In this document: piece by piece, positions 13,622-31,139 of the stretch
How positions within the stretch are numbered: the stretch's first letter is position 1
Layout of the letters: each line of letters begins with the position of its first letter
DNA from: an uncultured candidatus Porisulfidus sp.
Lineage (GTDB): Bacteria > Pseudomonadota > Gammaproteobacteria > Poriferisulfidales > Oxydemutatoraceae
Assembly (NCBI GenBank): GCA_963693105.1
Contig: OY843752.1
Span: 1,577,222 to 1,641,221, forward strand
Reading direction: 5' to 3'
Length of the DNA stretch: 64,000 bases
Program-made: the position numbers and the translations under genes
The notes under the pieces: model-generated
The model's database searches: none
What the model was told of the DNA's origin: nothing
Seen by the model: only the letters and a program-made list of their open reading frames with translations

Positions 13622-14220
13622 AAAAAACCGCCGCTTCCCTGATGATTTGGGCGCTGCTGCTCGCGGCGCCGTGCGCATACGCGCAATCAAGCGATGAACT
13701 CTACCAGATCGAACTGCTCATCCTGAAACACGGCGACGGCGCGGCGGAGCAGTTGCGCAATGTCGTCAAGCCCGAACTGGTGCACCGGCTGAGGCAGCCG
13801 GCGCTGGACCTTACACAGGCCGCGCCCGGCGACCGGATTCTGCCGGTCACCGACCGCTCGCAATACCGACTGGCCCGACAGGCCGAAAAAATCGAGGCCG
13901 ACGGCTCGTTCAAAATCCTGCGCCACATCGCCTGGCGACAACCGGCCTTCAACCGCGAACAGGCGCGTTACATCAACCTCCCCGGAGAGCCGGCGGCGGG
14001 GCTGCTGAAAGGCATCGCCTGGCTCAGCCACGAGCAGTATTTTCAACTGCGCCTGGACTTTCAATACGACCCGGATTACGCCGCCGAACCGACCGTCGCG
14101 AAAAAACCGACAACGACGCTGATTCCGATTCACATGAAGAAAGTCCTGCTGCCCGGCGAACTCCACTACCTCGACCACCCCATCATCAGCGTCCTCGCAA
14201 AGATCACCGAGGTGAAGTGA
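13618..14220 (+). CDS. csiV: Secreted CsiV-family-like protein (periplasmic, signal peptide)
   Basis: Signal peptide MKKTAASLMIWALLLAAPCAYA followed by an ELYQIELLILKH motif. Its position directly downstream of mfd with an ATGA overlap matches the conserved mfd-csiV neighbourhood. The family call is from memory of the motif and is uncertain. Confidence 0.4.
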   Translation: MKKTAASLMIWALLLAAPCAYAQSSDELYQIELLILKHGDGAAEQLRNVVKPELVHRLRQPALDLTQAAPGDRILPVTDRSQYRLARQAEKIEADGSFKILRHIAWRQPAFNREQARYINLPGEPAAGLLKGIAWLSHEQYFQLRLDFQYDPDYAAEPTVAKKPTTTLIPIHMKKVLLPGELHYLDHPIISVLAKITEVK

Positions 14221-14225
14221 TGAAA

Positions 14226-17200
14226 TTATCCGCCGACACTTTCGCCCCGGTGTTGAATCATCTCGTTATAGGTGAGCTTGAACATGCTGTCCGAAAGCCA
14301 CTTCTTGAAAGACTCATTGTCGCTGAACTGTTTGTGTAGATCCGTATAATCTGGAAGCGCTTCGAGCATAATGTGGTTCAGAGCTTCGTTATGCTCAATG
14401 CGTGCATTTTGTTTGTCGGAGTTTTGGCATGCGTTGCGGAAAGCGGGGTTCGCTTTTATCTTTTCAGGTAGTTCTCTGATGAACTGCCGATCCCTATCAT
14501 CGCCACCAAACTGGTTGTTGAAATCCCGGATGATGCTGGACAATGGATCCATCTCAATCTCCGGCTTTCGCATATCACCACCGGTCGGTATCGGGTCAAT
14601 CTCGGCATCATCGTCTTGCAGTGCAATCTGCGTCTTGGCTTTCACCTCAGCCCGGTAACTGGCCATGTCTATGGCTTCCAGGATGCCTCTGGACAAATCT
14701 TCTTCTTTGGGGGCGGGCAACTTCGGGATTAAAAAATTGAGAAAGATGGTGCGCTTCTCCCACTCGGAATTACTGTATGGAAGCAACGCCGAAAGAAATT
14801 CGTAAGTGCGGGTAAATGCCTTGGCCTTGCCCTTGAAAGCAATCTGGCCGTCTTCATCCAGTTCGTCCAAATATACTTTGACGCATTGATCCAGAACAGG
14901 GTCAAGTTGGTCGCGCTCAACGCCGTCCAGATACTGCCGAACAAAGCTGTCTATTTGTTCCGGCGAATAAACCTGATAACCGTCAAGGTCTGCCTGAATA
15001 TCATGCAGTTTGTTGGGGTCGGTCTCGTCAGCCAGAATGGTGCCACGGTAGTAGGGATTAAACGCTTCCCGAATGCCGTCAACGTCATTCATAAAGTCCA
15101 GCACAAAAGTATCGTGCTTTTTCGGATAGGAACGGTTGAGGCGCGATAACGTTTGCACAGCCTTGATGCCTGACAATTTTTTGTCAACATACATCGTGTG
15201 CAGAAGCGGCTCATCGTAGCCGGTCTGAAACTTGTCGGCGCAGATGAGAAACCGGTACGGCTCTTCCTGAATCTTGTCCTCAATAAGCCTTGATGGGAAT
15301 TCATTGAGCAACGCCTCGCTGACCCTCGCGCCGTTGTAGTCGTGCTCGCCCGAGAAAGCCACAATAGCCTTATATTGGCTCTTGCGTTCAAGCAAATAGG
15401 CGCGGATGGCATTGTAGTATTCGATTGCGCGCTGAATGCCGCCAGTCACCACCATCGCGCGCGCCTGTTCGCCGATTTTTTCCTGGCCAATGACTTGCTC
15501 GTGGAAGTGGTCAACCATGATTTCGGCCTTGAGCCGAATCGCATGACTGTGACCTTCGACATAGCGGCGAAGCTTTTTTCTGGCTTTCTTTGCATCGAAC
15601 TCGGGATCCGCCTCAATGGTCTTGGCCAGTCTGTAGTAACTCTTTATCGGCGTGTAGTGCTGAAGCACATCCAGAATAAAGCCTTCCTGAATAGCCTGCT
15701 TCATTGTGTAGATGTGGAAAGAACGGTGTTTGGTCGTGCCGTCCGCTTGCGGGTTCGGGTTGCCGAATATCTCCAGCGTCTTGTTCTTCGGAGTGGCTGT
15801 AAAAGCAAAGTAACTGGCGTTGGATAGCAGCCTACGCGATTCCATCAGCCGGTTAATCTGGTCCTCGAAAGTTTCCCCTTCCTCTTCCCTGCCCGCCTCG
15901 GCGAGTGCCCGCGCCACAGACGCACCAGCCTTGCCGCCCTGACTGGAATGTGCCTCGTCAATGATGAGGGCGAAACACCGTTTTCTCTGTTCATTTCCAA
16001 TCTCGTTGAGGATATACGGGAATTTCTGCAACGTTGTGATGATGATCTTTTTGCCTTCTTCAATGAATTTCCGCAGGTCGCCCGAATCCTTAGCGTGTCC
16101 CACCGTTGCTCCGACCTGGGCAAATTGTTTAATAGTGTCTCGAATTTGCTTGTCGAGGATGCGTCGGTCGGTAATCACAATAATCGAGTCAAACACGGGC
16201 TTGTTGTTTTTCGCCAACCCGATTAACTGATGAGCCAGCCAGGCGATGGAGTTGGATTTTCCACTCCCCGCCGAGTGCTGAATCAAGTAGCGCTTACCCA
16301 CACCCTCTGCCCCGGCGTCGGCCAGAAGTTGGCGCACAACATCAAGCTGATGATAGCGAGGCCATATCTGCGCTTTCTTCTTGCGTCCGGTCTTTTCGTC
16401 CTTCGACTCCACCACTTGGGCGTAGTTCTCAAGGATGTTGGTAAGACTCGTTCGAGTCAGCACTTCGCGCCACAAGTAATCAGTCTTGATGCCGTTGGGA
16501 TTCGGCGGGTTGCCGGCGCCGCCTTCCCAACCTTTGTTGAAAGGCAGAAACCATGATGCCTTGCCCTTCAAGTGCGTACAAAAACGCACCTCTTGTTCAT
16601 CCACCGCAAAGTGCGCCACGCAACGGCCAAACTCAAAGAGTTTCTCGCTCGGGTCGCGGTCTGTCTTGTACTGCCGGACCGCATCATCCACCGTCTGCCT
16701 GGTGAGGCTGTTCTTCAATTCAAAAGTGGCAACCGGCAGACCGTTTATAAAGAGCCCCATGTCCAACGCAAGTTTCGGATTGGTGCGGCTGTAACCCAAC
16801 TGTCGCGTGATTGAGAAGCGGTTTGCCTCGAACAATGTCTGGGCTTTTTCGTTCCCCGGCGATGGTGTGCCGTAGAAAAGGTTGAGGTTATGGGCGCCGT
16901 GTTTGATTCCACGGCGCAGCACGTCAATGGTGCCGCGCTTGCTAATCCCACTTCGTAGTCGTGCCAGAAACTTTCGCCGTGCAGGGCAATCATTATCTAA
17001 CCCCAGCGATTCGGCCACCTCCGGTTGCGTAGCGACCAGAAAGGCTGAAAGTTGCGCCAAATCCACGCAGTACTCACGGTCGTAGTCATGCCGGTTGCCG
17101 CAAATCCAGCCCACTCCGCCATAACTAACCGGCAGTTCGGACACCGAACCCTCCTTAGGCGGGTCACAGGGCTGGCCGGCCAAAACCATGCAGATATGGC

Positions 17201-17243
17201 GTTCAAGACCACGTTCAGAGGTGTCAGTGACGCTACTGGACAT
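14226..17243 (-). CDS. hsdR: Type I restriction enzyme R subunit HsdR
   Basis: 1005 aa with a helicase core (DEAH box LIIDEAHSSQ, GSGKS Walker A) and an N-terminal nuclease region, in Type I R-M context. Local GC is clearly lower than the flanks. Confidence 0.9.
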   Translation of the reverse strand: MSSSVTDTSERGLERHICMVLAGQPCDPPKEGSVSELPVSYGGVGWICGNRHDYDREYCVDLAQLSAFLVATQPEVAESLGLDNDCPARRKFLARLRSGISKRGTIDVLRRGIKHGAHNLNLFYGTPSPGNEKAQTLFEANRFSITRQLGYSRTNPKLALDMGLFINGLPVATFELKNSLTRQTVDDAVRQYKTDRDPSEKLFEFGRCVAHFAVDEQEVRFCTHLKGKASWFLPFNKGWEGGAGNPPNPNGIKTDYLWREVLTRTSLTNILENYAQVVESKDEKTGRKKKAQIWPRYHQLDVVRQLLADAGAEGVGKRYLIQHSAGSGKSNSIAWLAHQLIGLAKNNKPVFDSIIVITDRRILDKQIRDTIKQFAQVGATVGHAKDSGDLRKFIEEGKKIIITTLQKFPYILNEIGNEQRKRCFALIIDEAHSSQGGKAGASVARALAEAGREEEGETFEDQINRLMESRRLLSNASYFAFTATPKNKTLEIFGNPNPQADGTTKHRSFHIYTMKQAIQEGFILDVLQHYTPIKSYYRLAKTIEADPEFDAKKARKKLRRYVEGHSHAIRLKAEIMVDHFHEQVIGQEKIGEQARAMVVTGGIQRAIEYYNAIRAYLLERKSQYKAIVAFSGEHDYNGARVSEALLNEFPSRLIEDKIQEEPYRFLICADKFQTGYDEPLLHTMYVDKKLSGIKAVQTLSRLNRSYPKKHDTFVLDFMNDVDGIREAFNPYYRGTILADETDPNKLHDIQADLDGYQVYSPEQIDSFVRQYLDGVERDQLDPVLDQCVKVYLDELDEDGQIAFKGKAKAFTRTYEFLSALLPYSNSEWEKRTIFLNFLIPKLPAPKEEDLSRGILEAIDMASYRAEVKAKTQIALQDDDAEIDPIPTGGDMRKPEIEMDPLSSIIRDFNNQFGGDDRDRQFIRELPEKIKANPAFRNACQNSDKQNARIEHNEALNHIMLEALPDYTDLHKQFSDNESFKKWLSDSMFKLTYNEMIQHRGESVGG

Positions 17244-17368
17244 AACTCAGGCACTCTTTGTCAAATGACAGTCAGTTAAGAAAATCTGCATATTCCAAAG
17301 GACTGGAGATTTAGTCATTAAAATCGAGCACCTTCATCAATTACCCGTCAACATGCCGAGCCCGATTA

Positions 17369-18349
17369 TTACTGCCGGGTGATTTTTCGGCCAATGTAAA
17401 GGACTTTAAGCCGGACTTGTCCAAGTGGAACCGGCCATTCAAAATGAATTCGAAAAGTTTCCCGACTAATCTTCCCATGCCAAGGGCAGAACAATGATTC
17501 GGAAGGGTCTGAAGGATCCTTGAAGGTCAATTTCTGTTTAAATTTTCTCTTGTTGCTTTCAGATTCATCACTAAACCATGCTTTGCGGCCTTGGCTATGT
17601 TTCTTCCATAGCTCATTAGCGGCATCCGTCATTCCCCCGTCAGAAACACGGCGGTCCGACATGATTTCTTGCAAGACGTTCAAACGACTTTCGATTCTGT
17701 TTGAGATAATTCCAGAAAATGTTTCTCGGGAAAGTGCGGTCTTCAAAATATCATCCGAAATTTCCAGATGATTGAAGCGCTCTTGACAGAATTCTATTAA
17801 TTCTTCCCAACTCTGTGGGGCACGCCTTTCATTCAGGCAAGATTCGAGTTTCTGTACATCCCAAGTGTTGGGGATACTGATTTTACCGAACGGGTCTTCG
17901 GGGAGGCCATGCAAGACCGTTAAAGGGGTTCGCTCGAAATTGATCCGACCACCGGTGAAACTAAAGACTCCGGACGGGTCGTGCACACGCACTCTTCTGG
18001 CTGCCTCCCCAAGGCCGCTATATGTAACGTCCTCACCCTCAAATTCGAAATAGTTATCTGGTTCGTCCTGCTTATCATTTTCTACGAATGAGCTAGCTTT
18101 AGAAACCCATCCAAAGAACAATCTTTTCATATCGGGCTTGCTTTGCTCCACAGCCTCGGAAGCATTCATCCAGGCTGTAACCGGTCGATGTTTGAGTTCA
18201 TCGGTACAGAAAAGCTGATACGTTTTCCCTTTCAATTTCCAACGAATCGAAGCTACTTTCAGGAAATCATTGAGAAACGCTTTTCCCGTCTCAAACTGTC
18301 CTTGAAGTGATAACTCGTTGATGTACCACTTCACGCGGATTGGTCCCAC
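17369..18349 (-). CDS. Uncharacterised 326-aa protein, third gene of the DUF262/ATPase cassette
   Basis: No recognisable family from reading. Its start overlaps the upstream ATPase gene by 19 nt. Low GC. Contains a C-terminal R-x5-H (RETFRIH) that could be a HEPN-like motif; this is weak. Confidence 0.5.
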   Translation of the reverse strand: MGPIRVKWYINELSLQGQFETGKAFLNDFLKVASIRWKLKGKTYQLFCTDELKHRPVTAWMNASEAVEQSKPDMKRLFFGWVSKASSFVENDKQDEPDNYFEFEGEDVTYSGLGEAARRVRVHDPSGVFSFTGGRINFERTPLTVLHGLPEDPFGKISIPNTWDVQKLESCLNERRAPQSWEELIEFCQERFNHLEISDDILKTALSRETFSGIISNRIESRLNVLQEIMSDRRVSDGGMTDAANELWKKHSQGRKAWFSDESESNKRKFKQKLTFKDPSDPSESLFCPWHGKISRETFRIHFEWPVPLGQVRLKVLYIGRKITRQ

Positions 18350-19560
18350 CCTATCAGCGTTGCAAGATCTAATTCACTCTGATCGAAAAAGCCCTCGGGC
18401 CAAATGTCAAAAGCGCCCTCTGCATCAATAGCTGGCGAAATCACACCATGGCCAGCCTTAGAATCCACCCCGGAAAAGAAGTGAACCGCCACATCCGAAT
18501 GTGAGAGAACTCTCTTTTTCACGGCCAAACGAATCCCGTTCAGGACATGATCGCTGTGACTTTCAATCAATATCTGAACACCAGTGGTCGCAATACGAGC
18601 GAGTATCTCCCCCATGCGGGACTGTGCGCGTGGATGGAGATGAGCTTCCGGGCTCTCGATAATCAAAACTTGGTCTTCCCGAGCCAAAAGAATTGCCGCG
18701 AGAATCGGAAACACATACGTAAGCCCATATCCCACGTTGGCCGGGAGGCACCAGTCATTCTCTGTCCCAATGCCAAACAACAGCCGTATGAGAGAAGTCT
18801 TTTCTACTTTATTTGCCGTAACTCGCGTACCGGGGAAAAGATCATTTAAATAAGCATCCATCTGCCGGCGCAGACTTCCTGCATCCTCATTGGGATGCCA
18901 CCGGAATGAGTCAACTTCCTCATCTGCTGCCCATTCGTACCACCACGGCGCATATTGTCCTTCGCAACCGACATCTGCATAAATAATGTTTGCATTGTCT
19001 GGAGACGGATATACATCGGATATTTCGCCGCGCTCTGAATTCAAGAATATAATATTCCTGAGTGCATGAATTAAATCGCTTGAGGAAGCGCCAGTATCTG
19101 GATTGTCCCACATTTTCCCGGCCCACTTTTGCGGTTCCGTATTCCGCCGCTGATATGTCACCCTCTCAATATGGAACAAGTCTTTTCTAGGTTCAGATAA
19201 ACGCATTTGAGGGTCCACAGGACTGAAACTCCATGAAGCATGCTCATTCCCGGTAGCAACTGAAATTCCAATCCGGCGCTCTTCCGCTTGGCTTGACAAC
19301 ACATCGCTCGGTCGCCCAAGTCGAATAATTGGCCCATTAGGCGGCAAATATGCCGAGTCAGAATCCAGACTGAGGCCTTGTGTCAATAGAAGGAGAGAAT
19401 GTAATGCTGTGGATTTCCCTGCCGAGTTGAAGCCGGTGAACAGCGTAAGCGGCGCCAATGCAAGACGCAGAGCCGAGAAACACTTTAGATTGGAAAATTC
19501 AAGCGAGCGCAGTGCCATGGCTTCAGTTCCTGATTCCGAATGCTTTTGTGGCAAGTTCAA
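18331..19560 (-). CDS. AAA_21/ABC-type ATPase with C-terminal DUF3696-like region (OLD/AbiEii-like ATPase architecture)
   Basis: Walker A motif LFTGFNSAGKST, Walker B-like VLIIESPEAHLHP, then ILIESHSDHVLNGIRL (DUF3696-like). Its start overlaps the DUF262 gene by 38 nt, or is adjacent if Met15 is the true start. Confidence 0.7.
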   Translation of the reverse strand: MNLPQKHSESGTEAMALRSLEFSNLKCFSALRLALAPLTLFTGFNSAGKSTALHSLLLLTQGLSLDSDSAYLPPNGPIIRLGRPSDVLSSQAEERRIGISVATGNEHASWSFSPVDPQMRLSEPRKDLFHIERVTYQRRNTEPQKWAGKMWDNPDTGASSSDLIHALRNIIFLNSERGEISDVYPSPDNANIIYADVGCEGQYAPWWYEWAADEEVDSFRWHPNEDAGSLRRQMDAYLNDLFPGTRVTANKVEKTSLIRLLFGIGTENDWCLPANVGYGLTYVFPILAAILLAREDQVLIIESPEAHLHPRAQSRMGEILARIATTGVQILIESHSDHVLNGIRLAVKKRVLSHSDVAVHFFSGVDSKAGHGVISPAIDAEGAFDIWPEGFFDQSELDLATLIGWDQSA

Positions 19561-20656
19561 ATCTGGTTCTTACAGACTTGGTATTATTGGTAAAGTAGCT
19601 GATAGCACTGTTGAACTGCTCATCATCAATTAGATTGACCATCGCTTCGCGGATTTTATGTCCCAATTCTGATTCAAGGGAGATTTCTTCCGGGAACTCT
19701 GCCAACAACACTGTGCAAACATCGAAAAGAGAAATATTGAGCTTACCACGTTTAATGCCGGGCCCTTCAAAAACAAGTGATTTGCGGAATGCATGTCTCT
19801 TAAAGAGTTGTCGATTAGATTGTAATGACCGATTAAATTTCTTCATGAGGTCATTCAAACACGCCTCATTATCGGGGTCATTCATATAACGCAGAGCTTT
19901 AGCCAGAAATTCGTCCATGTCTCCGCGGTATTCATCTACCCCGAGAATGCTAAACGCGCAGAAGCGATTCACCGCCTCCCGGTCTCTCATGATTTCAGGT
20001 TTCAGTGCATATCCTGTTGCCGCATGGAACAGTTCGCTTTCCACTGCTTTTTTGAGCCAACGCGTTGCAGGACCATTGTATACCGCATTGCGCATTTGCT
20101 GGCGACTCAAAGCGATACCGCTGTTTACGCGCTCAAAAATATCGAGTCGAGCACGTTCCGGCGCATTGGCATCAAGTATATACATAATAAGCTGTGTATC
20201 GAGAATTCGCTCTTGTAATTTCAGAGGCAATTGACTGAACTTCTTCCCTTCAATGGAGCTTTCTCGATTACCCCCGTCATTTAAACCGGTACCCCGTATC
20301 TTGAATTCGTCATTTACATAGTTCAGAAAAGTAGTGATTCTCTGTAGCCCGTCCACAATGATAATTTCCCCTCCCAGCCCTTCCGCAACATAAAAAACCG
20401 GAAGCGGGATGCGCATAATGCAACTTTCGATAAGCTTTGACTGTTTATCATGCGGCCATACGAAATCGCGCTGGAAATCCGGGTCGAGTATCCAGCGGTT
20501 GTTCTTGACTCGACCAAGAACTTCTGAAACCGACCTTGTTTCTTGACGAATGAAGAGAGAATCTAGAGGGTATCCCGTACTGCCATCGCCAGCTGTTTTG
20601 TCGTGGCCCTCAATCTCCTCTTTGGGTGGCTTTTGTTCGGTCGCTATTTCTGCCAT
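19523..20656 (-). CDS. DUF262 domain protein (ParB/Srx-like nuclease fold; DndB/GmrS-N-like)
   Basis: FQRDFVW followed by IIIVDGLQRITTF, matching the DUF262 signature (classically DGQQR). 377 aa with no DUF1524/HNH half. There is a promoter-like AT-rich stretch upstream at 20657-20803. Confidence 0.7.
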   Translation of the reverse strand: MAEIATEQKPPKEEIEGHDKTAGDGSTGYPLDSLFIRQETRSVSEVLGRVKNNRWILDPDFQRDFVWPHDKQSKLIESCIMRIPLPVFYVAEGLGGEIIIVDGLQRITTFLNYVNDEFKIRGTGLNDGGNRESSIEGKKFSQLPLKLQERILDTQLIMYILDANAPERARLDIFERVNSGIALSRQQMRNAVYNGPATRWLKKAVESELFHAATGYALKPEIMRDREAVNRFCAFSILGVDEYRGDMDEFLAKALRYMNDPDNEACLNDLMKKFNRSLQSNRQLFKRHAFRKSLVFEGPGIKRGKLNISLFDVCTVLLAEFPEEISLESELGHKIREAMVNLIDDEQFNSAISYFTNNTKSVRTRFELATKAFGIRN

Positions 20657-20803
20657 TTCTTCACCACGTGCCCTTGATTACTGCGAGTACAAAAAACATG
20701 GTTTCTTATGCCTTGAATTGATTGGTTCGTAACCGTCTGTAATAGTGCGGATACCCAATGTGATTAATATAACAAACTTTTCGGGCTGACAAGGGGAAAA
20801 TGG

Positions 20804-22192
20804 TCAACCTTCCAGTCTCTCCATCCTTTCAGTTTCTTCGCCTATGTCGCTCAAAGCGTTTCTCTCGCCTATCGGCTCCGAATCACCAAATTCGTCAGGC
20901 AGACTGTTTGCCACCCCACGCACGTCAACCTTGCCGGTGACTACATCGGCAATCAGGCGGGTGCGGTATTCTTGCAGGAGTTCAATCTCGCGGCGGGCGC
21001 GTGCAATGGTAGTATCAATGTCGGCGGTGGTGCGGTCAAGGTATTCGACAATAGCGGTTTGTTCAAGCAGAGGAGGAATAGGTAATCTTGAGCGGCTTAA
21101 CTTTTCATAGTCGATGTTCTGGCCTTGCCTGATTCCAGTCACAAAGAACCTAAGATTTTCGATGTATGGCATCGATTTGAACAAGTGCGCGAGATACCTG
21201 TGGTTTTCTGTATTTTTTACAACGAGGATTGTGTATGCAGGGCTGATAATCCCTTGCTCATGCGCATATTCAATACCTCCTTGAAACGATCTAAGACTGA
21301 TAACAAAGTCACCAACACACACCAACTTCAATAAGTGAAGATCTTTCAGTGCCAGAACTGTCCTGCTTTCATATTGCTCTTTGCGAACAACTCCCTTCGT
21401 TTGGGTCGCTGCAAGTAAAGGTTCATTAGGGTACCCTTTTTCGCTTCGCTCATTAAATAGAATTTTTGTTCGCCGAACATCCCAATGTTCCGGCACCTCC
21501 CCCAGCCATTTAATGCCAGAGTCTTTTAGGGGAACATTGGGGTCGAGGCCGCGGGTGATGGCGCGGGTGATGATGGCCTGTTTTTGTTCTTTCAGTAATT
21601 CAACCAGCTTCTGCTTCGCTCGAACAAACCGCCACACCCGTTGCTCCACATAATCCAGATAGTGAACAATCGCGACTTGTTCCGAGAGAGGTGGAAAGCA
21701 TGAGTGGATGGTCTTAAAGTGTTCAGGACGCAGGCTCCACATATCTGATGCAATGCCATAGGACCAGCGCTCGGCTTCTTTTGCAAATGACGGAATTCGA
21801 AAAAGCTGATGGAAGTAATTAGGATTGCTACAATTATGTGGCCGCTGCACTACATACGCGGGACTAATGATGCCTCTGTAATTTGAAACACCAATCGCCC
21901 CCTGCCATGCACGCATTTTGTTGTATGCTATATCTCCGGGCTGTACAACCTTGTAATTTGACTTATCCAAATTTGAGCTATCCTTCTTAGATGTAGTCTC
22001 AAGAAGCGCTGATTGGCGAATCACCCCTTTTTTTATGGTAACGGACAGCATTTGCTCGTCAGGATATCCGCGGTCTTTAACCTCATCAAACATAGCCCGG
22101 TTTGGCAGCACTTCCCAATGCTCCGGCACATCTCCCAGCCACTCGACACCAGAGTCCTTCATTGCGGGATAAGGTTTGAGGTTGGAAATCAT
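20804..22192 (-). CDS. hsdS: Type I restriction-modification specificity subunit HsdS
   Basis: 462 aa with two target-recognition domains and repeated conserved elements (DSGVEWLGDVPEHWEV... / DSGIKWLGEVPEHWDV...). Confidence 0.88.
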   Translation of the reverse strand: MISNLKPYPAMKDSGVEWLGDVPEHWEVLPNRAMFDEVKDRGYPDEQMLSVTIKKGVIRQSALLETTSKKDSSNLDKSNYKVVQPGDIAYNKMRAWQGAIGVSNYRGIISPAYVVQRPHNCSNPNYFHQLFRIPSFAKEAERWSYGIASDMWSLRPEHFKTIHSCFPPLSEQVAIVHYLDYVEQRVWRFVRAKQKLVELLKEQKQAIITRAITRGLDPNVPLKDSGIKWLGEVPEHWDVRRTKILFNERSEKGYPNEPLLAATQTKGVVRKEQYESRTVLALKDLHLLKLVCVGDFVISLRSFQGGIEYAHEQGIISPAYTILVVKNTENHRYLAHLFKSMPYIENLRFFVTGIRQGQNIDYEKLSRSRLPIPPLLEQTAIVEYLDRTTADIDTTIARARREIELLQEYRTRLIADVVTGKVDVRGVANSLPDEFGDSEPIGERNALSDIGEETERMERLEG

Positions 22193-22225
22193 TACAGTAC
22201 TTTCCCTCCCCTATTCATAGTGCCA

Positions 22226-23453
22226 CTAATTGGTTTCCCCAACGATTTCGCCCAACAACCCTTCCGTCTCCTTCTCCAATGCCAGAATATCAGTGCGAAT
22301 TTCCCCCAGTGTGCGCATCGGCTGAGGTTTATAGAAATAGCGGGTGAAACTGATTTCGTAGCCAATCTTGACGCTGTTCTCGACATACCAGGCATCGGAA
22401 ACATGCGGCAACACTTCACGCTTCAGGAATGCCTCAATGCCGCCTTTTTCCGGTAGCGGTATCTGTTCGGTGTCGCGCAGGTCGGTGTCCGGTTCGTATT
22501 CCACTACGGCGGGCTTGCCGTTGATGGCGGTCTCGAAAAGACCTCGCAATGGGTCGGGGACTGTCCCTTTCTTGTGGATTTTCTTGATGATGGGCGGAGC
22601 CTCCTCGCTTCGCTTACCATTTTCTTTCATGTCCTTGATTTCTTTTGCTTTGTAAGCGCGATTCGGGTCGGCGCCTTCAATGCGAAGCGGGCGTTCAACG
22701 GTGATTTTCCAGTAGCCGAAAGCCTCGTTGTCAAAAATCTTGCTCTGCTCTGACTCCTCAAACGCAAGAAAGGTATCGCAAATGCGCTTGATGTCATTCT
22801 CTCCGAGTTCGCAGTTCTTCTTGCCCAGATTCTTGCGTAGCGACTGATACCACCCGGTGGCGTCAATGAGTTGCACCTTGCCCTTGCGGTGTTCAGGCTT
22901 GCGGTTGCTGAGTACCCAGATATAAGTGGCGATGCCAGTGTTATAAAACAGGTTCAACGGCAACGCGATAATAGCCTCCAGCCAATCGTTTTCAATAACC
23001 CATCGGCGGATATTGCTCTCGCCCTGCCCGGCGTCACCCGTGAATAGTGAACTCCCGTTGTGTACTTCAGCAATGCGGCTGCCGAGTTTCGTGCGCCGCT
23101 TCATTTTGCTCAGCATGTTCGCCAGGAAAAGCATCTGGCCGTCGCTGGAGCGGGTTACCAGAGAGTAGTCGGGAACATCAGCGTGACTAATCGAAAAACG
23201 CGTGTCGCTTATTTCGCCTTTCCCGCCCATGCGGTCCAAATCGCTTTTCCAACTCTTGCCATAGGGGGGATTGGAGAGCATGAAATCAAATTCGGTGGAC
23301 GGGAAGGCATCGTTAGAAAGAGTTGAATATTCAGCACCACCGACGATGTTATCCGCCGCTTCGCCTTCACCTTTGAGTAGCATATCCGCCTTACAGATGG
23401 CGTAGGTCTCGGCGTTAATCTCCTGGCCATAGAGGTGTGTCTTAACTTCTTTA
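22226..23453 (-). pseudogene. hsdM: hsdM C-terminal fragment (Type I DNA methyltransferase, catalytic NPPYG region), separated from its 5' part by an IS
   Basis: The fragment carries the NPPYG motif. Hand translation just above the track ORF start gives KEVKTHLYGQEINAETYAICKADM. Joining this to the N-terminal fragment across the IS, minus one TSD copy, restores one open frame. Confidence 0.85.
23446..23453. repeat. Target-site duplication CTTCTTTA (left copy)
   Basis: An identical 8-mer directly flanks both ends of the IS. 8 bp is the usual TSD length for IS1595-family elements. Confidence 0.75.
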
Positions 23454-23585
23454 GGGAATTATATACCAAAATGCACCAAAAACGGGGGAAAGCCTTATAG
23501 GGTAAAGGTTTTTAGTGATTGACATTTGCGCTGAAATATGCAATAATAAACGGGTTGTTAATCACTGATATAGGAGTATATCAAA

Positions 23586-24509
23586 ATGAAAAAGAGAGTA
23601 GCCAAAACCCTATCCACATTTGACTTTATGGCCATGTTTCCGACAGAGAAGAGAGCGCGTAAGTATGTAGAGCGTTTGCTTTGGAAGGGCAAGCCAGTAT
23701 GTCCGCATTGCAAGCATGGCAAGGTAATGACACTGAAAAGAGAAGGTCATTACAAGTGCCATAGTTGCCGCAAGGTATTTACTGTTCGGGTAGGTACCAT
23801 CATGGAGAGTAGCAAGGTGCCGTTTCGCAAGTGGTTGTATGCGATGTATCTGATTGCTACTTCCCGCAAAAGCATTAGCAGTTTGCAGTTGAGTAAAGAG
23901 ATTGGCGTTACTCAAAAGACTGCATGGTTTCTTGGTCATAGAATCCGTGAAGCCTTTAAGAGCGGTGATGTATTGCTTTCAGATATTGTGGAAGTGGATG
24001 AAACCTACATCGGCGGCAAGGAACGCAACAAGCATAGCAACAAGAAGTTGAGGGCTGGTCGTGGAGCAGTGGGTAAGGCGGCTGTAATGGGTATGCGAGA
24101 GCGCACTGGTAAAGTAAAGGCCATGTCGGTAGAGAGTGCGGACAAGCCTACGCTACAAGGTGCAATTCATAAGCACATTGAAAAGGGTTCGGTTGTTTAT
24201 ACCGACGACCACAGGGCTTACTTGGGGTTGGAAGGATACGACCATAGCAAGGTCAATCATTCAGCAAAGGAATATGTAAATGGAATGGCACATACTAACG
24301 GCATTGAGTCGGTATGGGCTGTGCTCAAGCGTGGATATGTAGGCACCTTCCACAATTTCAGCGAGAAGCATTTACAGCGATATGTAGATGAGTTTGCTTT
24401 CAGGTTGAATGAGGGTAACTGTGAAGTGGATACGGAAGACAGGATTGTCGCGCTTTGTAATGGAATGCAAGGCAAGCGTATCAAGTACAAAGATTTGACA
24501 GGGAAGTAA
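23586..24509 (+). CDS. IS1595-family (ISXO2-like) DDE transposase
   Basis: 307 aa with an N-terminal zinc finger (CPHCKHG...CHSCRK), a DDE core and a typical IS1595 C-terminus (YVDEFAFRLNEG). Confidence 0.85.
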   Translation: MKKRVAKTLSTFDFMAMFPTEKRARKYVERLLWKGKPVCPHCKHGKVMTLKREGHYKCHSCRKVFTVRVGTIMESSKVPFRKWLYAMYLIATSRKSISSLQLSKEIGVTQKTAWFLGHRIREAFKSGDVLLSDIVEVDETYIGGKERNKHSNKKLRAGRGAVGKAAVMGMRERTGKVKAMSVESADKPTLQGAIHKHIEKGSVVYTDDHRAYLGLEGYDHSKVNHSAKEYVNGMAHTNGIESVWAVLKRGYVGTFHNFSEKHLQRYVDEFAFRLNEGNCEVDTEDRIVALCNGMQGKRIKYKDLTGK

Positions 24510-24605
24510 CAGGACGGGGCAATGGTGCAGTTTGTGATTAACAACAATACTCTCGGCTGTGCTGTTGCCCTTTATTGTGTGCTGGAGTTAATCAAGTGAA
24601 GGCTG

Positions 24606-24614
24606 CCCCCCCCC
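24606..24614 (+). repeat. C9 homopolymeric tract upstream of the MTase-HNH gene
   Basis: GGCTG-CCCCCCCCC-AAATGG lies 23 nt upstream of the TTG start, or about 59 nt upstream of the first in-frame ATG at 24673. It is a candidate slipped-strand phase-variation tract. Confidence 0.5.
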
Positions 24615-24636
24615 AAATGGTATATGCCAGAACACT

Positions 24637-25842
24637 TTGTACACGGGTGATAACTTGTACATCTTGAACGGCATGAACAGTGAGTCGGTGGACTTGATTT
24701 ACCTTGACCCGCCGTTTAATTCCAAGCGGTTTTATTCGGCACCTGTAGGGAGTAAATCAGCAGGGGCAAGTTTCAAGGATATGTGGACTTGGCAGGATGT
24801 AGATGAAGCCTGCCTTGAGCGGCTGGTGAGTAACTATCCGTACCTTGTTCAGTTTATAGAGGCAGTGGAAGGGATACACGGCAAACCGATGATGTCATAC
24901 ATAACCTACATGACGCAAAGGGTAATAGAATTGCACAGAGTGTTAAAGAGTACTGGAAGTTTGTATCTACATTGCGACCCTACCGCGAGTCACTATCTGA
25001 AAGTGCTACTTGATAGAGTGTTCGGAAAGGGGAACTTTCTGAATGAGATTATCTGGCATTATTACAACGGTTCAAATAGAGCAAAAACAAACTTCGGTAG
25101 AAAGCACGATGTTATATTCTTCTACGCCAAGAAGCGCGATAAGCATTTGTATAACTGGAATGATATGCGAGAGCCGTATGTTAAAGGCAGTTCGTACGCC
25201 AAAGGAACGAATTACGGCAAGAAGGGTTTTTTACAGGGAGATGAACGCGGGAAACTTATGCACGATGTATGGCGTATTCCCTCAATCAATAACATGGCGA
25301 AAGAGCGCACCGGATACCCTACACAGAAACCGCTTGCATTACTCAATCGCATTATCAAAGCCAGTAGTAAAAAGGGGGATGTAGTGTTTGACCCGTTTTG
25401 CGGATGTGCTACGACAATGGTAGCGGCACAACAGTTACAGCGCGGGTGGGTAGGAATAGACATTGAAAGCAAAGCGGCAGAGTTGGTGGTGGATAGATTG
25501 TCAGATGAAGCAGGATTATTCGATGAGTTTATCCATAGAAAGGATGTGCCAGTACGAACGGATGTAAAGATTGAGTCGGAAAAGAGTAAGAGTGTGAAAG
25601 ACAGATTGTTCAATGAGCAAAAAGGGGCATGTAACGGCTGTCGTGATGAGTTTGAGATACGACACTTTGAGGTTGACCATATTATTCCGAGGTCAAAAGG
25701 TGGTGGGAATTACTACGAGAATTATCAGTTGCTTTGTGGAAGTTGCAATCGTACAAAAGGCAATCGGCCTATGGAATACCTACACAAGAAAATAACGGCG
25801 CGTGAGAAACACATGCAGCATAGAATTACTTTCGGAGCATGA
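24637..25842 (+). CDS. Beta-class DNA amino-methyltransferase (N6-adenine or N4-cytosine) fused to a C-terminal HNH endonuclease domain; IS passenger gene
   Basis: Motif IV (LIYLDPPFNS) lies near the N-terminus and motif I (VFDPFCGCATTMVAA) is distal, which is the beta-class order. The C-terminus has HNH signatures (HFEVDHIIPRSKGG...NYQLLCGSCNRTKGN). The track start is TTG; an in-frame ATG at 24673 (MNSESVDLIYLDPPF) is an alternative. Confidence 0.8.
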   Translation: MYTGDNLYILNGMNSESVDLIYLDPPFNSKRFYSAPVGSKSAGASFKDMWTWQDVDEACLERLVSNYPYLVQFIEAVEGIHGKPMMSYITYMTQRVIELHRVLKSTGSLYLHCDPTASHYLKVLLDRVFGKGNFLNEIIWHYYNGSNRAKTNFGRKHDVIFFYAKKRDKHLYNWNDMREPYVKGSSYAKGTNYGKKGFLQGDERGKLMHDVWRIPSINNMAKERTGYPTQKPLALLNRIIKASSKKGDVVFDPFCGCATTMVAAQQLQRGWVGIDIESKAAELVVDRLSDEAGLFDEFIHRKDVPVRTDVKIESEKSKSVKDRLFNEQKGACNGCRDEFEIRHFEVDHIIPRSKGGGNYYENYQLLCGSCNRTKGNRPMEYLHKKITAREKHMQHRITFGA

Positions 25843-25961
25843 ACAAGTCAAAGCCAACAACGCGGAAGGTCAAGAGGGAAAGAAGGCGACCGCCTGCATG
25901 GTTTGATGATGTCGTAAGGAAGGCTTTGTTGTCTGGTGAAGGCAAGAAGAATGCTAAATAG

Positions 25962-25987
25962 TTGGTGCATTTTTGTATATAATTCCC
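25962..25987. repeat. Right inverted repeat of the IS1595-family element
   Basis: TTGGTGCATTTTTGTATATAATTCCC is the reverse complement of the left inverted repeat at 23454-23479, with one mismatch. Confidence 0.75.
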
Positions 25988-25995
25988 CTTCTTTA
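25988..25995. repeat. Target-site duplication CTTCTTTA (right copy)
   Basis: Identical to the 8-mer at 23446-23453. Confidence 0.75.
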
Positions 25996-26756
25996 CCTTG
26001 CTCCTTGGCTAGTTCCCGCAATGTTTCTTCGGCGACCGTCAGCATCCCGCCGGTACCGCAGGCGCCGTCGTAGAGCAGGTAGGTGCTGGACTTGATCTTG
26101 TCGGCAACGGGAAGGAAGATGAGTTTTGCCATCAACTTGACCGCATCGCGCGGCGTCCAGTGTTCACCGGCTTCTTCGTTATTCTTTTCGTTGAAACGGC
26201 GCACCAATTCCTCAAAGATTGTGCCCATGCCGTGGTTGTCCAGACCGGGATGCTTGATCGATCCGTCTTTATTCTTTATCGGGTAGGGGCTGAGATTGAT
26301 ATCGGGTGATGTGAGTTTTTCAATCAATGTGCCCAACGCATCAGCTTTCGAGAGGTCCGGAATCTGGTTGCGAAACTTGAAGTTGTCGAGAATATCCTGC
26401 ACGTTGGGCGAAAAGCCGTCGAGATATGCTTCAAAGTCAGCGCGAAGTTGCTGTTGATTGGCACAGGCTTTCAGGTCCCGTAGGGTGAATTTGGAAACAT
26501 TGTAGAACGCATGCCCGGCGGCCATACGTAAAGTCCCGTCCTGTTCGACCACTTTGGCTTTATCCAGTCGGCTCATCGCATCCAAGACGGCTTGCTTGCT
26601 GTTCTCCAGTACCGCGTCCAGGCGACGAAGAAGGGTCATGGGAAGAATCACATCGCGGTATTTCCCTCGCACGTACAAATCGCGTAGCACATCGTCTGCG
26701 ATGCCCCAGATAAAAGCGACAATTCTTCCGTGTTGGTCGTTGTTCATGTCGGTCAA
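25988..26756 (-). pseudogene. hsdM: hsdM N-terminal fragment (HsdM_N domain plus AdoMet-binding motif I)
   Basis: HsdM N-terminal domain plus motif I (LYDGACGTGGML). The authentic sequence ends ...LRELAKEQGKE at the IS junction. The last 45 aa of the track ORF (ELYTKMHQ...) are read-through into the IS inverted repeat. Confidence 0.85.
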
Positions 26757-26777: not shown

Positions 26778-28169
26778 TTACTCCACCGGAAGCGCACGGC
26801 GTATCCGCGCGAGACAGCGTTCCTTCCCCAGCCATTCCATCACCCGGCTGAGGTCGGGGCTGGGTGCGCCGCCGGTCAGCGCGAAGCGCAGCGGTTTGCC
26901 GAGTTTTCCCATCGGGATGTTCAATTCTTTCAGCACGCCGGACAAGGTCTGTTTCAGCACTTCATCGCGCCATTCCCCGACCGACTCCAGCGCCGCGAGC
27001 AGGCGGTTCAGGTATGAACCCACCTCGGCGGTCGCGTGTTTGCGCGCCGTGGCGGTGTCGTAGTCTATTTCTTCTTTGTACAGAAAAACCGCGCCCTGCG
27101 CCATTGCCTGCAACGTCGGATGACGCGACTTCATCGCATCCATCACGTCTTCAAGCGCGGGGCCTTGCGCGGGGTCGCATCCGAGCAGCCGCAGGCGCGC
27201 GGCAAAATCATCCGCCAACGAGGCCGACGGCGTTTGCGCCAGATAGTGCCCGTTCAGCCAGTCGAGTTTGTCGGGATCGAACGCCGCGGCGGAGGCATTC
27301 AGGCCGTCGAGGTCGAAATACCGCACCATCTCATCGAGCGAAAACACTTCCTGGTCGCCATGCGCCCAGCCGAGACGCACCAGGCAGTTGAGCAGCGCCG
27401 CGGGCAGATAGCCCTGCTCGCGGTAGTGCGCGACACCGGGCGCCCCGGTGCGCTTCGACAGCCTCGCGCCGTGGCGGTCGAGAATCAGCGGCACGTGCGC
27501 GTAGTCCGGCGGCGACGCATCGAGCGCGCGGAAAATATTGAACTGGCGCGGCGTGTTGCTCAAGTGATCGTCGCCGCGAATCACGTGTGTAATCTCCATG
27601 TCCATGTCGTCCACGACGACCGTCAGGTTGTAAGTCGGCGTTCCGTCGGCGCGCGCGATTACCAGATCGTCGAGCTCGCTGTTGGCGGTCTCGACCTCGC
27701 CGTGTACATGGTCGCGAAAGACCACCGCGCCTTGTTGCGGATTCATAAAGCGCACCACCGGCGCAACGCCCGCGCGCGGCGCGCGGCCATCGCGGCAGCG
27801 CCCGTTGTAACGCGGTTTGTCGCCCTTCGCGAGTTGTTCGCGGCGCAGTTCCTCGAGTTCCTCGCGGGTGCAGTAGCAATGATAGGCTTTGCCTTCGTCG
27901 AGCAGGCGCGCGATGACTTCGCGGTAACGCGCCATTCTGTGGCTCTGGTAGAAGGGGCCTTCGTCCCAATCCAGCCCAAGCCACGCCAGCCCGTCCTGAA
28001 TCGCGTTCGCCGACTCTTCGCTGGAACGTTCGCGGTCGGTGTCCTCGATACGCAGCACAAAACAGCCGTCGTGACGACGCGCGTACAGCCACGAAAACAA
28101 CGCGGTGCGCATGCTGCCCGCGTGCAGCACGCCGGTCGGGCTCGGTGCGAAACGCGTGCGGACTTTCAT
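26778..28169 (-). CDS. gltX: Glutamate--tRNA ligase GltX
   Basis: Protein MKVRTRFAPSPTGVLHAGSMRTALFSWLYARRH... carries the HIGH-type motif. A KMSKS-equivalent region is present. Start is internal Met37 of the track ORF; 463 aa. Confidence 0.92.
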   Translation of the reverse strand: MKVRTRFAPSPTGVLHAGSMRTALFSWLYARRHDGCFVLRIEDTDRERSSEESANAIQDGLAWLGLDWDEGPFYQSHRMARYREVIARLLDEGKAYHCYCTREELEELRREQLAKGDKPRYNGRCRDGRAPRAGVAPVVRFMNPQQGAVVFRDHVHGEVETANSELDDLVIARADGTPTYNLTVVVDDMDMEITHVIRGDDHLSNTPRQFNIFRALDASPPDYAHVPLILDRHGARLSKRTGAPGVAHYREQGYLPAALLNCLVRLGWAHGDQEVFSLDEMVRYFDLDGLNASAAAFDPDKLDWLNGHYLAQTPSASLADDFAARLRLLGCDPAQGPALEDVMDAMKSRHPTLQAMAQGAVFLYKEEIDYDTATARKHATAEVGSYLNRLLAALESVGEWRDEVLKQTLSGVLKELNIPMGKLGKPLRFALTGGAPSPDLSRVMEWLGKERCLARIRRALPVE

Positions 28170-30520: not shown

Positions 30521-31139
30521 GCGCCCCGTGTTCGGTGCGGTAGCGAATCAAGTCCTCCACCGTGCCGATTTTCAGGCGGTGGTGGCGCGCGAAGGCCTCG
30601 AGATCGGGGCGCCGCGCCATGGAACCGTCCTCTTTCAGAATCTCGACGATGACCGCCGCCGGTTCGGCGGCGCCGGCAAGCCGCGCCAGATCGCACCCGG
30701 CCTCGGTGTGCCCGGCGCGGGTCAGCACGCCGCCCGGTTGCGCCATCAGCGGAAAAATATGTCCGGGCCGGTTCACATCGCCGGGCGAGACGCCCGGCGC
30801 GACCGCGGTTTGGACGGTATGCGCCCTGTCGTGCGCCGATATGCCGGTGCTGACGCCGGTGCGCGCATCAATCGAGACGGTGAAGTTCGTTGCCAGACAG
30901 TCGGCGGGGCTGTCAACCATCAACGGCAGTTCAAGACGTGTGCAATGCTCGCGCGTCAGCGTCAGACAGACCAGCCCGCGGCCGTGGGTAATCATGAAAT
31001 TAATCGCCCGCGGCGTGACCCGCTCCGCCGCCATCACCAGGTCACCCTCATTTTCGCGGTCTTCACCATCCATGATAATGACCATCCGCCCGTTGCGAAT
31101 GTCCGCGACCAGCTCTTCGATGGTTGCGCTCGGCATCAC
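30507..31139 (-). CDS. ribB: 3,4-dihydroxy-2-butanone 4-phosphate synthase RibB (monofunctional)
   Basis: 210 aa with DHBP synthase motifs ([22 protein letters not shown]). There is no GTP cyclohydrolase II half. Confidence 0.88.

Follow-up and report, generated by a model that had tools for sequence, protein, structure and literature searches.

A previously unrecorded IS1595-family transporter insertion sequence, carrying a methyltransferase-HNH gene, splits hsdM of a Type I restriction-modification island

A divided gene

A 64,000-nucleotide stretch of DNA from an uncultured Candidatus Porisulfidus sp. (contig OY843752.1, positions 1,577,222 to 1,641,221 of the forward strand; the entire stretch is referred to here as 'the window') harbors a Type I restriction-modification (R-M) locus in which the hsdM gene is divided by an insertion sequence (IS). 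The explanation that emerges from its analysis, and that is very likely to be correct, is that a new transporter IS of the IS1595 family transposed into the AT-rich sequence CTTCTTTA within hsdM of a horizontally acquired Type I island, presumably silencing that system. An earlier reading of the window, made from the sequence alone, had proposed that the two halves of hsdM are separated by a 2534-bp element at 23454-25987, and this arrangement is borne out both by the sequence itself and by alignment to homologues.

The N-terminal part of the gene (25988-26756, minus strand) encodes residues 1-256, containing the HsdM_N domain and motif I (DGACGTGGML; 26040-26069, minus strand), which corresponds to the site of S-adenosylmethionine (AdoMet) binding; its start is either TTG 26756 or, with greater likelihood, ATG 26747. 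The C-terminal part (22226-23453, minus strand) encodes residues 254/257-662 and contains motif II (LYGQEIN, at 23414-23434, just past the break), the catalytic motif IV (NPPYG; 23258-23272, minus strand) and the stop codon, such that motifs I and IV are each located in the half to which the sequence-only reading had assigned them. The insertion point corresponds to codon 257, between the AdoMet motif and motifs II and IV, and the break falls inside the Rossmann fold of HsdM, between motifs I and II.

When positions 23454-25995 (the element and one copy of the flanking repeat) are deleted in silico, a minus-strand open reading frame (ORF) of 1,989 nucleotides is obtained, comprising 662 codons and a stop with no internal stop codon, precisely the in-frame restoration that had been predicted. 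ATG 26747 is the start used by the public gene call and by the nearest homologues (MNNDQ..., 659 codons), and a native HsdM of 659 residues appears more likely than one of 662. The rejoined protein displays the features that define an HsdM subunit, with an HsdM_N domain (Pfam, 4.5e-21), a gamma-class N6_Mtase domain (8.9e-53), motif I and NPPY, and it matches thousands of HsdM proteins of approximately 660 residues, the best 120 matches exhibiting 81-92% identity over 97-100% of the rejoined length.

The possibility that the two fragments derive instead from two distinct hsdM paralogues that have come to lie next to each other had been named in the sequence-only reading as an observation that could refute it, along with the alignment to intact homologues by which it might be examined. 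That alignment, now performed for both fragments, is gap-free at 81-92% identity. The two-paralogue idea is excluded because the alignment of the rejoined protein with eight intact homologues runs without a gap through the junction (...AKEQGKE/VKTHLYGQEIN...), and because the two halves, when placed at the DNA level upon the intact orthologue of a sister locus (L001), share precisely the 8 bases of the target duplication and no more. Furthermore, the rejoined protein spans 100% of the intact 659-662-residue homologues with neither gap nor overlap, its identity to them is alike on either side of the junction, and in the DNA the halves meet at those same 8 bp. The paralogue hypothesis accordingly retains almost no probability, and the fragments are, on this comparison, one split gene.

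In its present state the reading frame of hsdM is interrupted by 2,534 bp plus the 8-bp duplication, and the gene is, judged by that frame, a pseudogene. What remains is a truncated ORF (25848-26756, minus strand) that joins 256 native residues to a 46-residue tail derived from the right end of the element, and that is identical to the public gene call P0243. A second lesion was looked for in the rejoined gene and none was visible: at columns that are otherwise invariant it has 9 substitutions private to it, the intact homologues having between 1 and 15, and the earlier claim that the insertion is the only lesion therefore stands.

The element and its transposase

The element (23454-25987, plus strand; 2,534 bp) is oriented with its genes antisense to hsdM. 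It is bounded by a 26-nucleotide left inverted repeat, GGGAATTATATACCAAAATGCACCAA (23454-23479, plus strand), and a right inverted repeat (25962-25987, minus strand) that matches the left at 25 of 26 positions (96% complementary), the imperfection having been noted previously. Immediately outside these ends stand the two copies of the target-site duplication, CTTCTTTA, at 23446-23453 and 25988-25995; this 8-bp direct repeat is perfect. A pattern built from the inverted repeats occurs twice in the window, at the two ends of the element, with 0.00 occurrences expected (100 shuffles), and the element is present as a single copy within the window.

This architecture bears directly on the concern that the interruption might be an artefact, in which a repeat-induced chimeric join has been introduced by assembly and hsdM is intact in the real genome. 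The assembly is of a metagenome type, and the fragment proteins have no public copy outside it. Such an artefact is nonetheless very unlikely, because a perfect duplication of a single target stands exactly outside the 26-bp inverted repeats, an arrangement that a mis-join would not create; in addition, the element is single-copy in the window and offers no repeat to collapse, and 14 relatives display the same geometry of 8-bp duplication.

The first gene within the element (23586-24509, plus strand) encodes a transposase of 307 residues, consisting of a zinc ribbon and a DDE_Tnp_IS1595 domain. It is preceded by a strong promoter-like site, TTGACA-17-AATAAT (23519-23547, plus strand), which agrees with consensus at 11 of 12 positions and includes a TG extension. 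The site ends 38 bp before the start codon of the transposase, and its assignment is a consensus match only. The transposase matches PF12762 (DDE_Tnp_IS1595) at 2.6e-45 over the full profile, PF12760 (Zn_ribbon_IS1595) at 1.1e-11, and NCBIfam NF033547 (transpos_IS1595) at 215 bits against a cut-off of 75. Its zinc ribbon contains C39, C42, C58 and C61 (CPHC and CHSC at residues 39-42 and 58-61). Residues D138, D207, N238, E241 and K248 are invariant in 12 homologues (58-68% identity), and D138, D207, N238 and K248 are presumed to be catalytic. The assignment to the IS1595 family that had been made from sequence alone is upheld by agreement among the transposase profiles, the inverted repeats and the 8-bp duplication, and the nearest group to the element is presumably the DDNK ISPna2-type subgroup, the members of which carry passenger genes.

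A search of 5.8 billion proteins placed the transposase on no contig other than its own, and the nearest other protein shares 68% identity with it; because it is at most 68% identical to any other recorded protein, the element is considered a new and previously unrecorded IS. No further copies were found in JGI metagenomes or IMG/VR scanned with the inverted-repeat pattern, nor was anything found in JGI metagenomes scanned with a pattern spanning the C9 tract described below; PLSDB plasmids gave no match to the DNA of the element, and no relevant RNA family was found inside it.

A methyltransferase-HNH passenger

Two full genes lie inside the ends of the element, which is, by its gene content, a transporter IS rather than a plain IS. 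The second of these, located between the transposase and the right inverted repeat, encodes an N6_N4_Mtase domain fused to an HNH nuclease (24637-25842, plus strand; the frame is open from 24592). The sequence-only reading had missed this gene, together with the tract of nine cytosines (C9) upstream of it and NsnABC, a candidate defence system embedded in the Type I locus.

The passenger is a candidate single-chain R-M enzyme, and both of its domains, methyltransferase and nuclease, retain their motifs intact. The methyltransferase (Pfam N6_N4_Mtase, 1.2e-51) contains DPPF at 24706-24717 and FDPFCGCATT at 25387-25416, and is of the beta class by motif order, with DPPF ahead of FxGxG; the HNH nuclease domain (25630-25749; Pfam HNH, 3.1e-14) displays the arrangement CxxC...DH...N...CxxC, with the cysteine and DH/N residues present. 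The gene product is, by these motifs, a fusion of a beta-class, N6-adenine-type DNA methyltransferase with an HNH nuclease. The closest solved relatives of its methyltransferase core are M.RsrI, M.MboIIA and CcrM (PDB 1eg2, 1g60 and 6pbd; 3e-20 to 9e-16), and its HNH domain displays sequence likeness to those of Cas9 and IscB (2e-8 and weaker); unlike the passenger, none of these five proteins is a methyltransferase-HNH fusion.

Curated phage and plasmid collections contained no match covering at least 80% of the fusion protein, and a protein-based scan of IMG/VR with the passenger returned nothing. No description was found in the literature of methyltransferase cargo in an IS1595 element, or of methyltransferase-HNH fusions. 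The family has more than 8,000 relatives in the databases, among which there is no characterized member.

Downstream of the passenger is a putative gene of 40 codons (25839-25961, plus strand), encoding a basic product; its start codon and the stop codon of the passenger share the sequence ATGA. In other elements (L088/L089, L059 and L004) the methyltransferase-HNH gene is likewise followed by a short basic ORF; a conserved third gene is not supported, as the small ORFs in the four elements align poorly.

A homopolymer tract that sets the passenger frame

The probable native start of the passenger consists of a GGAG ribosome-binding site (24584-24587), an 8-nucleotide spacer and GTG 24596 (together 24584-24598, plus strand). 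Between this GTG and the methyltransferase frame lies the C9 homopolymer (24606-24614, plus strand), and translation from GTG 24596 ends after 23 codons, the passenger being one base out of frame with its start. A tract of either C10 or C7 would place GTG 24596 in the methyltransferase frame, the C10 reading being VKAAPPPNGICQNTLYTGDNLY.... The C9 tract is the sole homopolymer of at least 8 nucleotides in the window; as a measure of chance, a G/C run of at least 9 arises in 88% of windows after shuffling, versus the one C9 in the real window.

Comparison with homologues that are 62-69% identical to the passenger, rather than with isolates of one strain, indicates that tract length varies. The leader of P0134 (from locus L086), MKATPPPPNSNTLYTGD, is homologous and shares the same GGAGTTAATC..GTGAAGGCT context, with C14, in frame; that of P0161 (from L088/L089), MTTRRPPPKGIDQNTLF, contains C9 and is in frame; P0168 differs from P0161 by one proline; and the leader of L004 reads GTG-C-G8, likewise in frame. 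The tract is absent from 107 of 120 close passenger homologues, and is, on this comparison, a conserved but length-variable feature of one branch of the passenger family. Certain 'short' gene calls that start with MNSxSV were considered as possible off-phase alleles and rejected; L087 has an in-frame upstream ATG and is without the tract.

In this assembly the C9 tract cuts the passenger off from the GTG start that is linked to its ribosome-binding site. The tract may represent a slippage-prone on/off switch that is currently in its off position; alternatively, it may be a one-base homopolymer sequencing error. Simple-sequence tracts in mod or hsd genes are known to make DNA methyltransferases phase-variable, in systems termed phasevarions. 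The passenger resembles these in that a 5' coding homopolymer sets its frame and differs in length among homologues, and departs from them in that it is a beta-class, Type II-like methyltransferase fused to HNH and borne by an IS, in that most of its relatives are tract-free, and in that the variation is seen between homologues only.

Relatives of the element and of its cargo

Relatives were sampled as 80 transposase loci from reference genomes (46-63% identity), many of them metagenome-assembled genomes associated with sponges or invertebrates. Inverted repeats of the GGGAATTATATA type are present at 21 of the 80 loci, with elements spanning 1.37-4.2 kb; relatives of the element share GGGAATTATATAC termini, and 14 of them are flanked by perfect, AT-rich 8-bp duplications. 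A homologue of the passenger methyltransferase is found beside the transposase at 10 of the 80 loci. The clearest parallel is L004, an element of 2,616 bp whose inverted repeats agree at 26 of 26 positions and whose target duplication is TTTCTGAT; in it the transposase is 59% and the methyltransferase-HNH protein 62% identical to those of the window. At L088 a full transposase is followed directly by a methyltransferase-HNH gene, the start of which overlaps the transposase stop codon; no inverted repeats were found on that element.

Additional loci harbor the cargo in other arrangements. A decayed relative in L086 (3628-5197) possesses the left inverted repeat and only the last 72 residues of its transposase, and behind this stump the methyltransferase-HNH gene is intact and in frame; the cargo, to judge from this arrangement, has outlived its transposase. 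In L085 (3951-5381), on a 198-kb circular contig that contains tandem methyltransferase and methyltransferase-HNH genes, one of the methyltransferase-HNH genes is flanked by GGGAATTATATACATAAATGCACCAA on the left and by a right end that matches it, the left end being identical at 24 of 26 positions to the left inverted repeat of the window element. Neither a transposase nor a target duplication was found for this cassette, which looks like a cassette-like relic. At L084 and L087, methyltransferase-HNH cargo is present without any IS.

Passenger-carrying members of the IS1595 family are an established concept under the name of transporter IS (Siguier, Gagnevin & Chandler 2009, as cited in PMC3129680), and the term mobile insertion cassettes (MICs) is applied to IS ends that flank cargo with the transposase absent (De Palmenaer et al. 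2004, as cited in PMC3129680). The window element shares with the IS1595 transporter ISs an ISXO2-like DDE transposase with an N-terminal zinc ribbon and D-D-N-K residues, short inverted repeats, an 8-bp duplication and a passenger downstream of the transposase; it differs from them in its cargo, a methyltransferase-HNH fusion with a homopolymer tract. The similarity to MICs (cargo between GGGAATTATATAC-type ends without a transposase, as in L085, or behind a transposase stump, as in L086) belongs to those two relatives and not to the window element.

These relatives also raise a broader and more speculative scenario, in which IS1595-type transporter ISs and transposase-less cassettes spread a single-chain methyltransferase-HNH enzyme whose expression is toggled by a hypermutable poly-C/poly-G tract at the beginning of its gene, and in which such an enzyme has here displaced the resident Type I system while itself residing in the off phase. 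That scenario is a tentative one, with a rather low chance of being correct; if true, it would describe a mobile, phase-variable epigenetic or restriction module.

The Type I island and its sisters

The remainder of the Type I locus is intact. The hsdS gene (20804-22192, minus strand; 462 residues, Methylase_S) and the hsdR gene (14226-17243, minus strand; 1005 residues, with HSDR_N, SWI2_SNF2 and T1R_D3 domains) are each full length relative to the intact sister locus L001, in agreement with what had been asserted earlier. HsdR is 88% identical to that of L001 over its full length, and its match to TIGR00348 (3.3e-63; 214.3 bits) lies under the curated cut-off of 284.55. Embedded between hsdS and hsdR are three further intact genes, nsnA (19523-20656), nsnB (18331-19560) and nsnC (17369-18349), all on the minus strand, whose products match the PADLOC models NsnA, NsnB and NsnC at 5.7e-111, 5.1e-98 and 9.1e-98; in Pfam terms they correspond to GmrSD_N, AAA_21 with DUF3696, and no family, respectively.

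The gene order of the island is thus hsdM-hsdS-nsnABC-hsdR, and the same operon (hsdM-hsdS-GmrSD_N-AAA/DUF3696-unknown-hsdR) is present in L001, at a different chromosomal site and with hsdM uninterrupted. The island (14226-26756) has a GC content of 44-55%, versus approximately 64% outside it, and is packed closely between csiV/mfd, with the csiV stop codon at 14220, and gltX, whose stop codon is at 26778; neither an integrase nor a tRNA gene nor a flanking repeat was seen. In L082 and L083 the same hsdM/hsdR backbone contains, in place of NsnABC, a PRTase-CE gene, a NADAR-HsdS fusion, a MethyltransfD12 (Dam-like) gene and two unknown genes, and the middle of the Type I locus appears to be a site at which such genes are swapped.

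Within a sister genome (sample ERZ22155170), the orthologous hsdM (L083, 5487-9281) is also split, at codons ~219-223 and by an IS of the DDE_Tnp_1_4 type, approximately 35 codons upstream of the break in the window and with a duplication of ~12 bp, AAGATCAAGTCC; a second copy of the DDE_Tnp_1_4 transposase lies 2 kb upstream. Among the proteins of the 90%-identity HsdM cluster, 4 of 8 are truncated or fused, and erosion of hsdM is evidently recurrent in this genome group. In the same cluster, P0245 fuses HsdM to HsdS, with a deletion that spans the boundary between the two genes, and P0247 ends at residue 521.

Elsewhere in the window, in a high-GC housekeeping region, a borderline match to the Rfam family V_AS9 (a Vibrio antisense RNA) was recorded at 30936-31039 on the plus strand (51.6 bits versus a gathering score of 50); it is probably not meaningful.

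Why the element lies in hsdM

The sequence of events that best accounts for the locus is one in which the element would have transposed into an AT-rich 8-bp target inside hsdM, with its genes antisense to that gene. Within the island, AT-rich 8-mers reach a density 3.4 times higher, so that 16% of the length accounts for 39% of all such sites. Because the relatives share AT-rich duplications and enter unrelated genes, the insertion appears to be untargeted. The idea that the family targets R-M genes was considered and rejected, as the empty sites rebuilt for the relatives fall in genes unrelated to R-M. The insertion is thus best explained by an AT-rich target preference acting upon a low-GC island, which together would be sufficient, with IS activity in this genome group contributing further.

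A different interpretation is that the interruption was selected or is reversible, either because loss of the Type I system is favored (through the entry of foreign DNA or as part of symbiont-style decay), or because the passenger replaces the resident system. The independent splitting of the L083 orthologue by a different IS, the damage to half of the 90%-identity HsdM cluster, and the arrival with the element of a complete methyltransferase-nuclease gene all lend this interpretation some support. The same target preference and base composition, however, suffice without selection, the relatives enter unrelated genes, and in the window element the passenger is not in frame with its start; furthermore, precise excision of DDE-type IS elements is rare. 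Selection or reversibility is consequently judged unlikely, and an untargeted transposition into an AT-rich site is preferred.

The event is also consistent with a recent date, as had been surmised from the sequence, because the duplication is perfect, the inverted repeats differ by one base, the transposase is intact, and hsdM displays no excess of private substitutions.

Consequences for restriction and modification

Type I enzymes are assembled as R2M2S1 complexes, in which the M2S1 core is needed both for methylation and for target recognition by HsdR. At most, hsdM now yields its 256 N-terminal residues followed by 46 residues of foreign tail, its C-terminal part has no ATG ahead of M278, which is past motif II, and the gene has almost certainly been switched off by the insertion. 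The M2S1 core would then be unable to form, and both modification and restriction by this Type I system would be lost. An r-/m- phenotype is expected because hsdM is broken while hsdS, hsdR and NsnABC are intact. Loss of M is not self-toxic, unlike loss of R alone. In addition, hsdS is probably poorly expressed, because no promoter-like site reads out of the left end of the element; specifically, no minus-strand sigma-70-like promoter directed toward the C-terminal part of hsdM was seen there.

It might be argued that a split HsdM still functions, its two pieces being made separately and then reassembling, since both pieces remain ORFs. The position of the break within the Rossmann fold, between motifs I and II, the location of M278 after motif II, and the lack of a promoter-like site reading from the element toward the C-terminal piece all argue against such reassembly, which is highly improbable, and silencing by the insertion remains the favored outcome.

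Several considerations weigh against that outcome and against the account as a whole. Loss of function, a polar effect upon hsdS and a switched-off passenger are all inferences; a second hsdM may exist elsewhere in the 1.83-Mb chromosome, outside the window; and there is neither a second copy of the transposase nor more than one public contig by which to prove that the element is active. With respect to the passenger, C9 in place of C10 could reflect a homopolymer error of long-read assembly, and starts at TTG 24637 or ATG 24673 could still yield some methyltransferase.

The loss of hsdM has a precedent in Francisella tularensis Type B strains (PMC2682660), where the gene for the M subunit has likewise been lost while neighboring hsd genes persist; in contrast to that case, the lesion in the window is a single, clean and apparently recent insertion that is reversible on paper.

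Significance

The disruption of hsdM by an IS is a well-known and ordinary kind of event. What is new here is the element responsible, a previously unrecorded IS1595-family transporter IS with a methyltransferase-HNH cargo and a C tract that sets the reading frame of that cargo. For annotation, the public 299-residue HsdM call (P0243) represents the front half of a broken gene, and the Type I system should be scored as inactive in predictions of defence or of the methylome for this genome. For the biology of mobile elements, the locus provides a clear case of an IS with a methyltransferase-nuclease fusion as its cargo, in which the two ends and the target duplication are all delimited. For the host lineage, the independent IS insertion in L083 and the damage to half of the closest HsdM proteins point to an ongoing erosion of this defence island.

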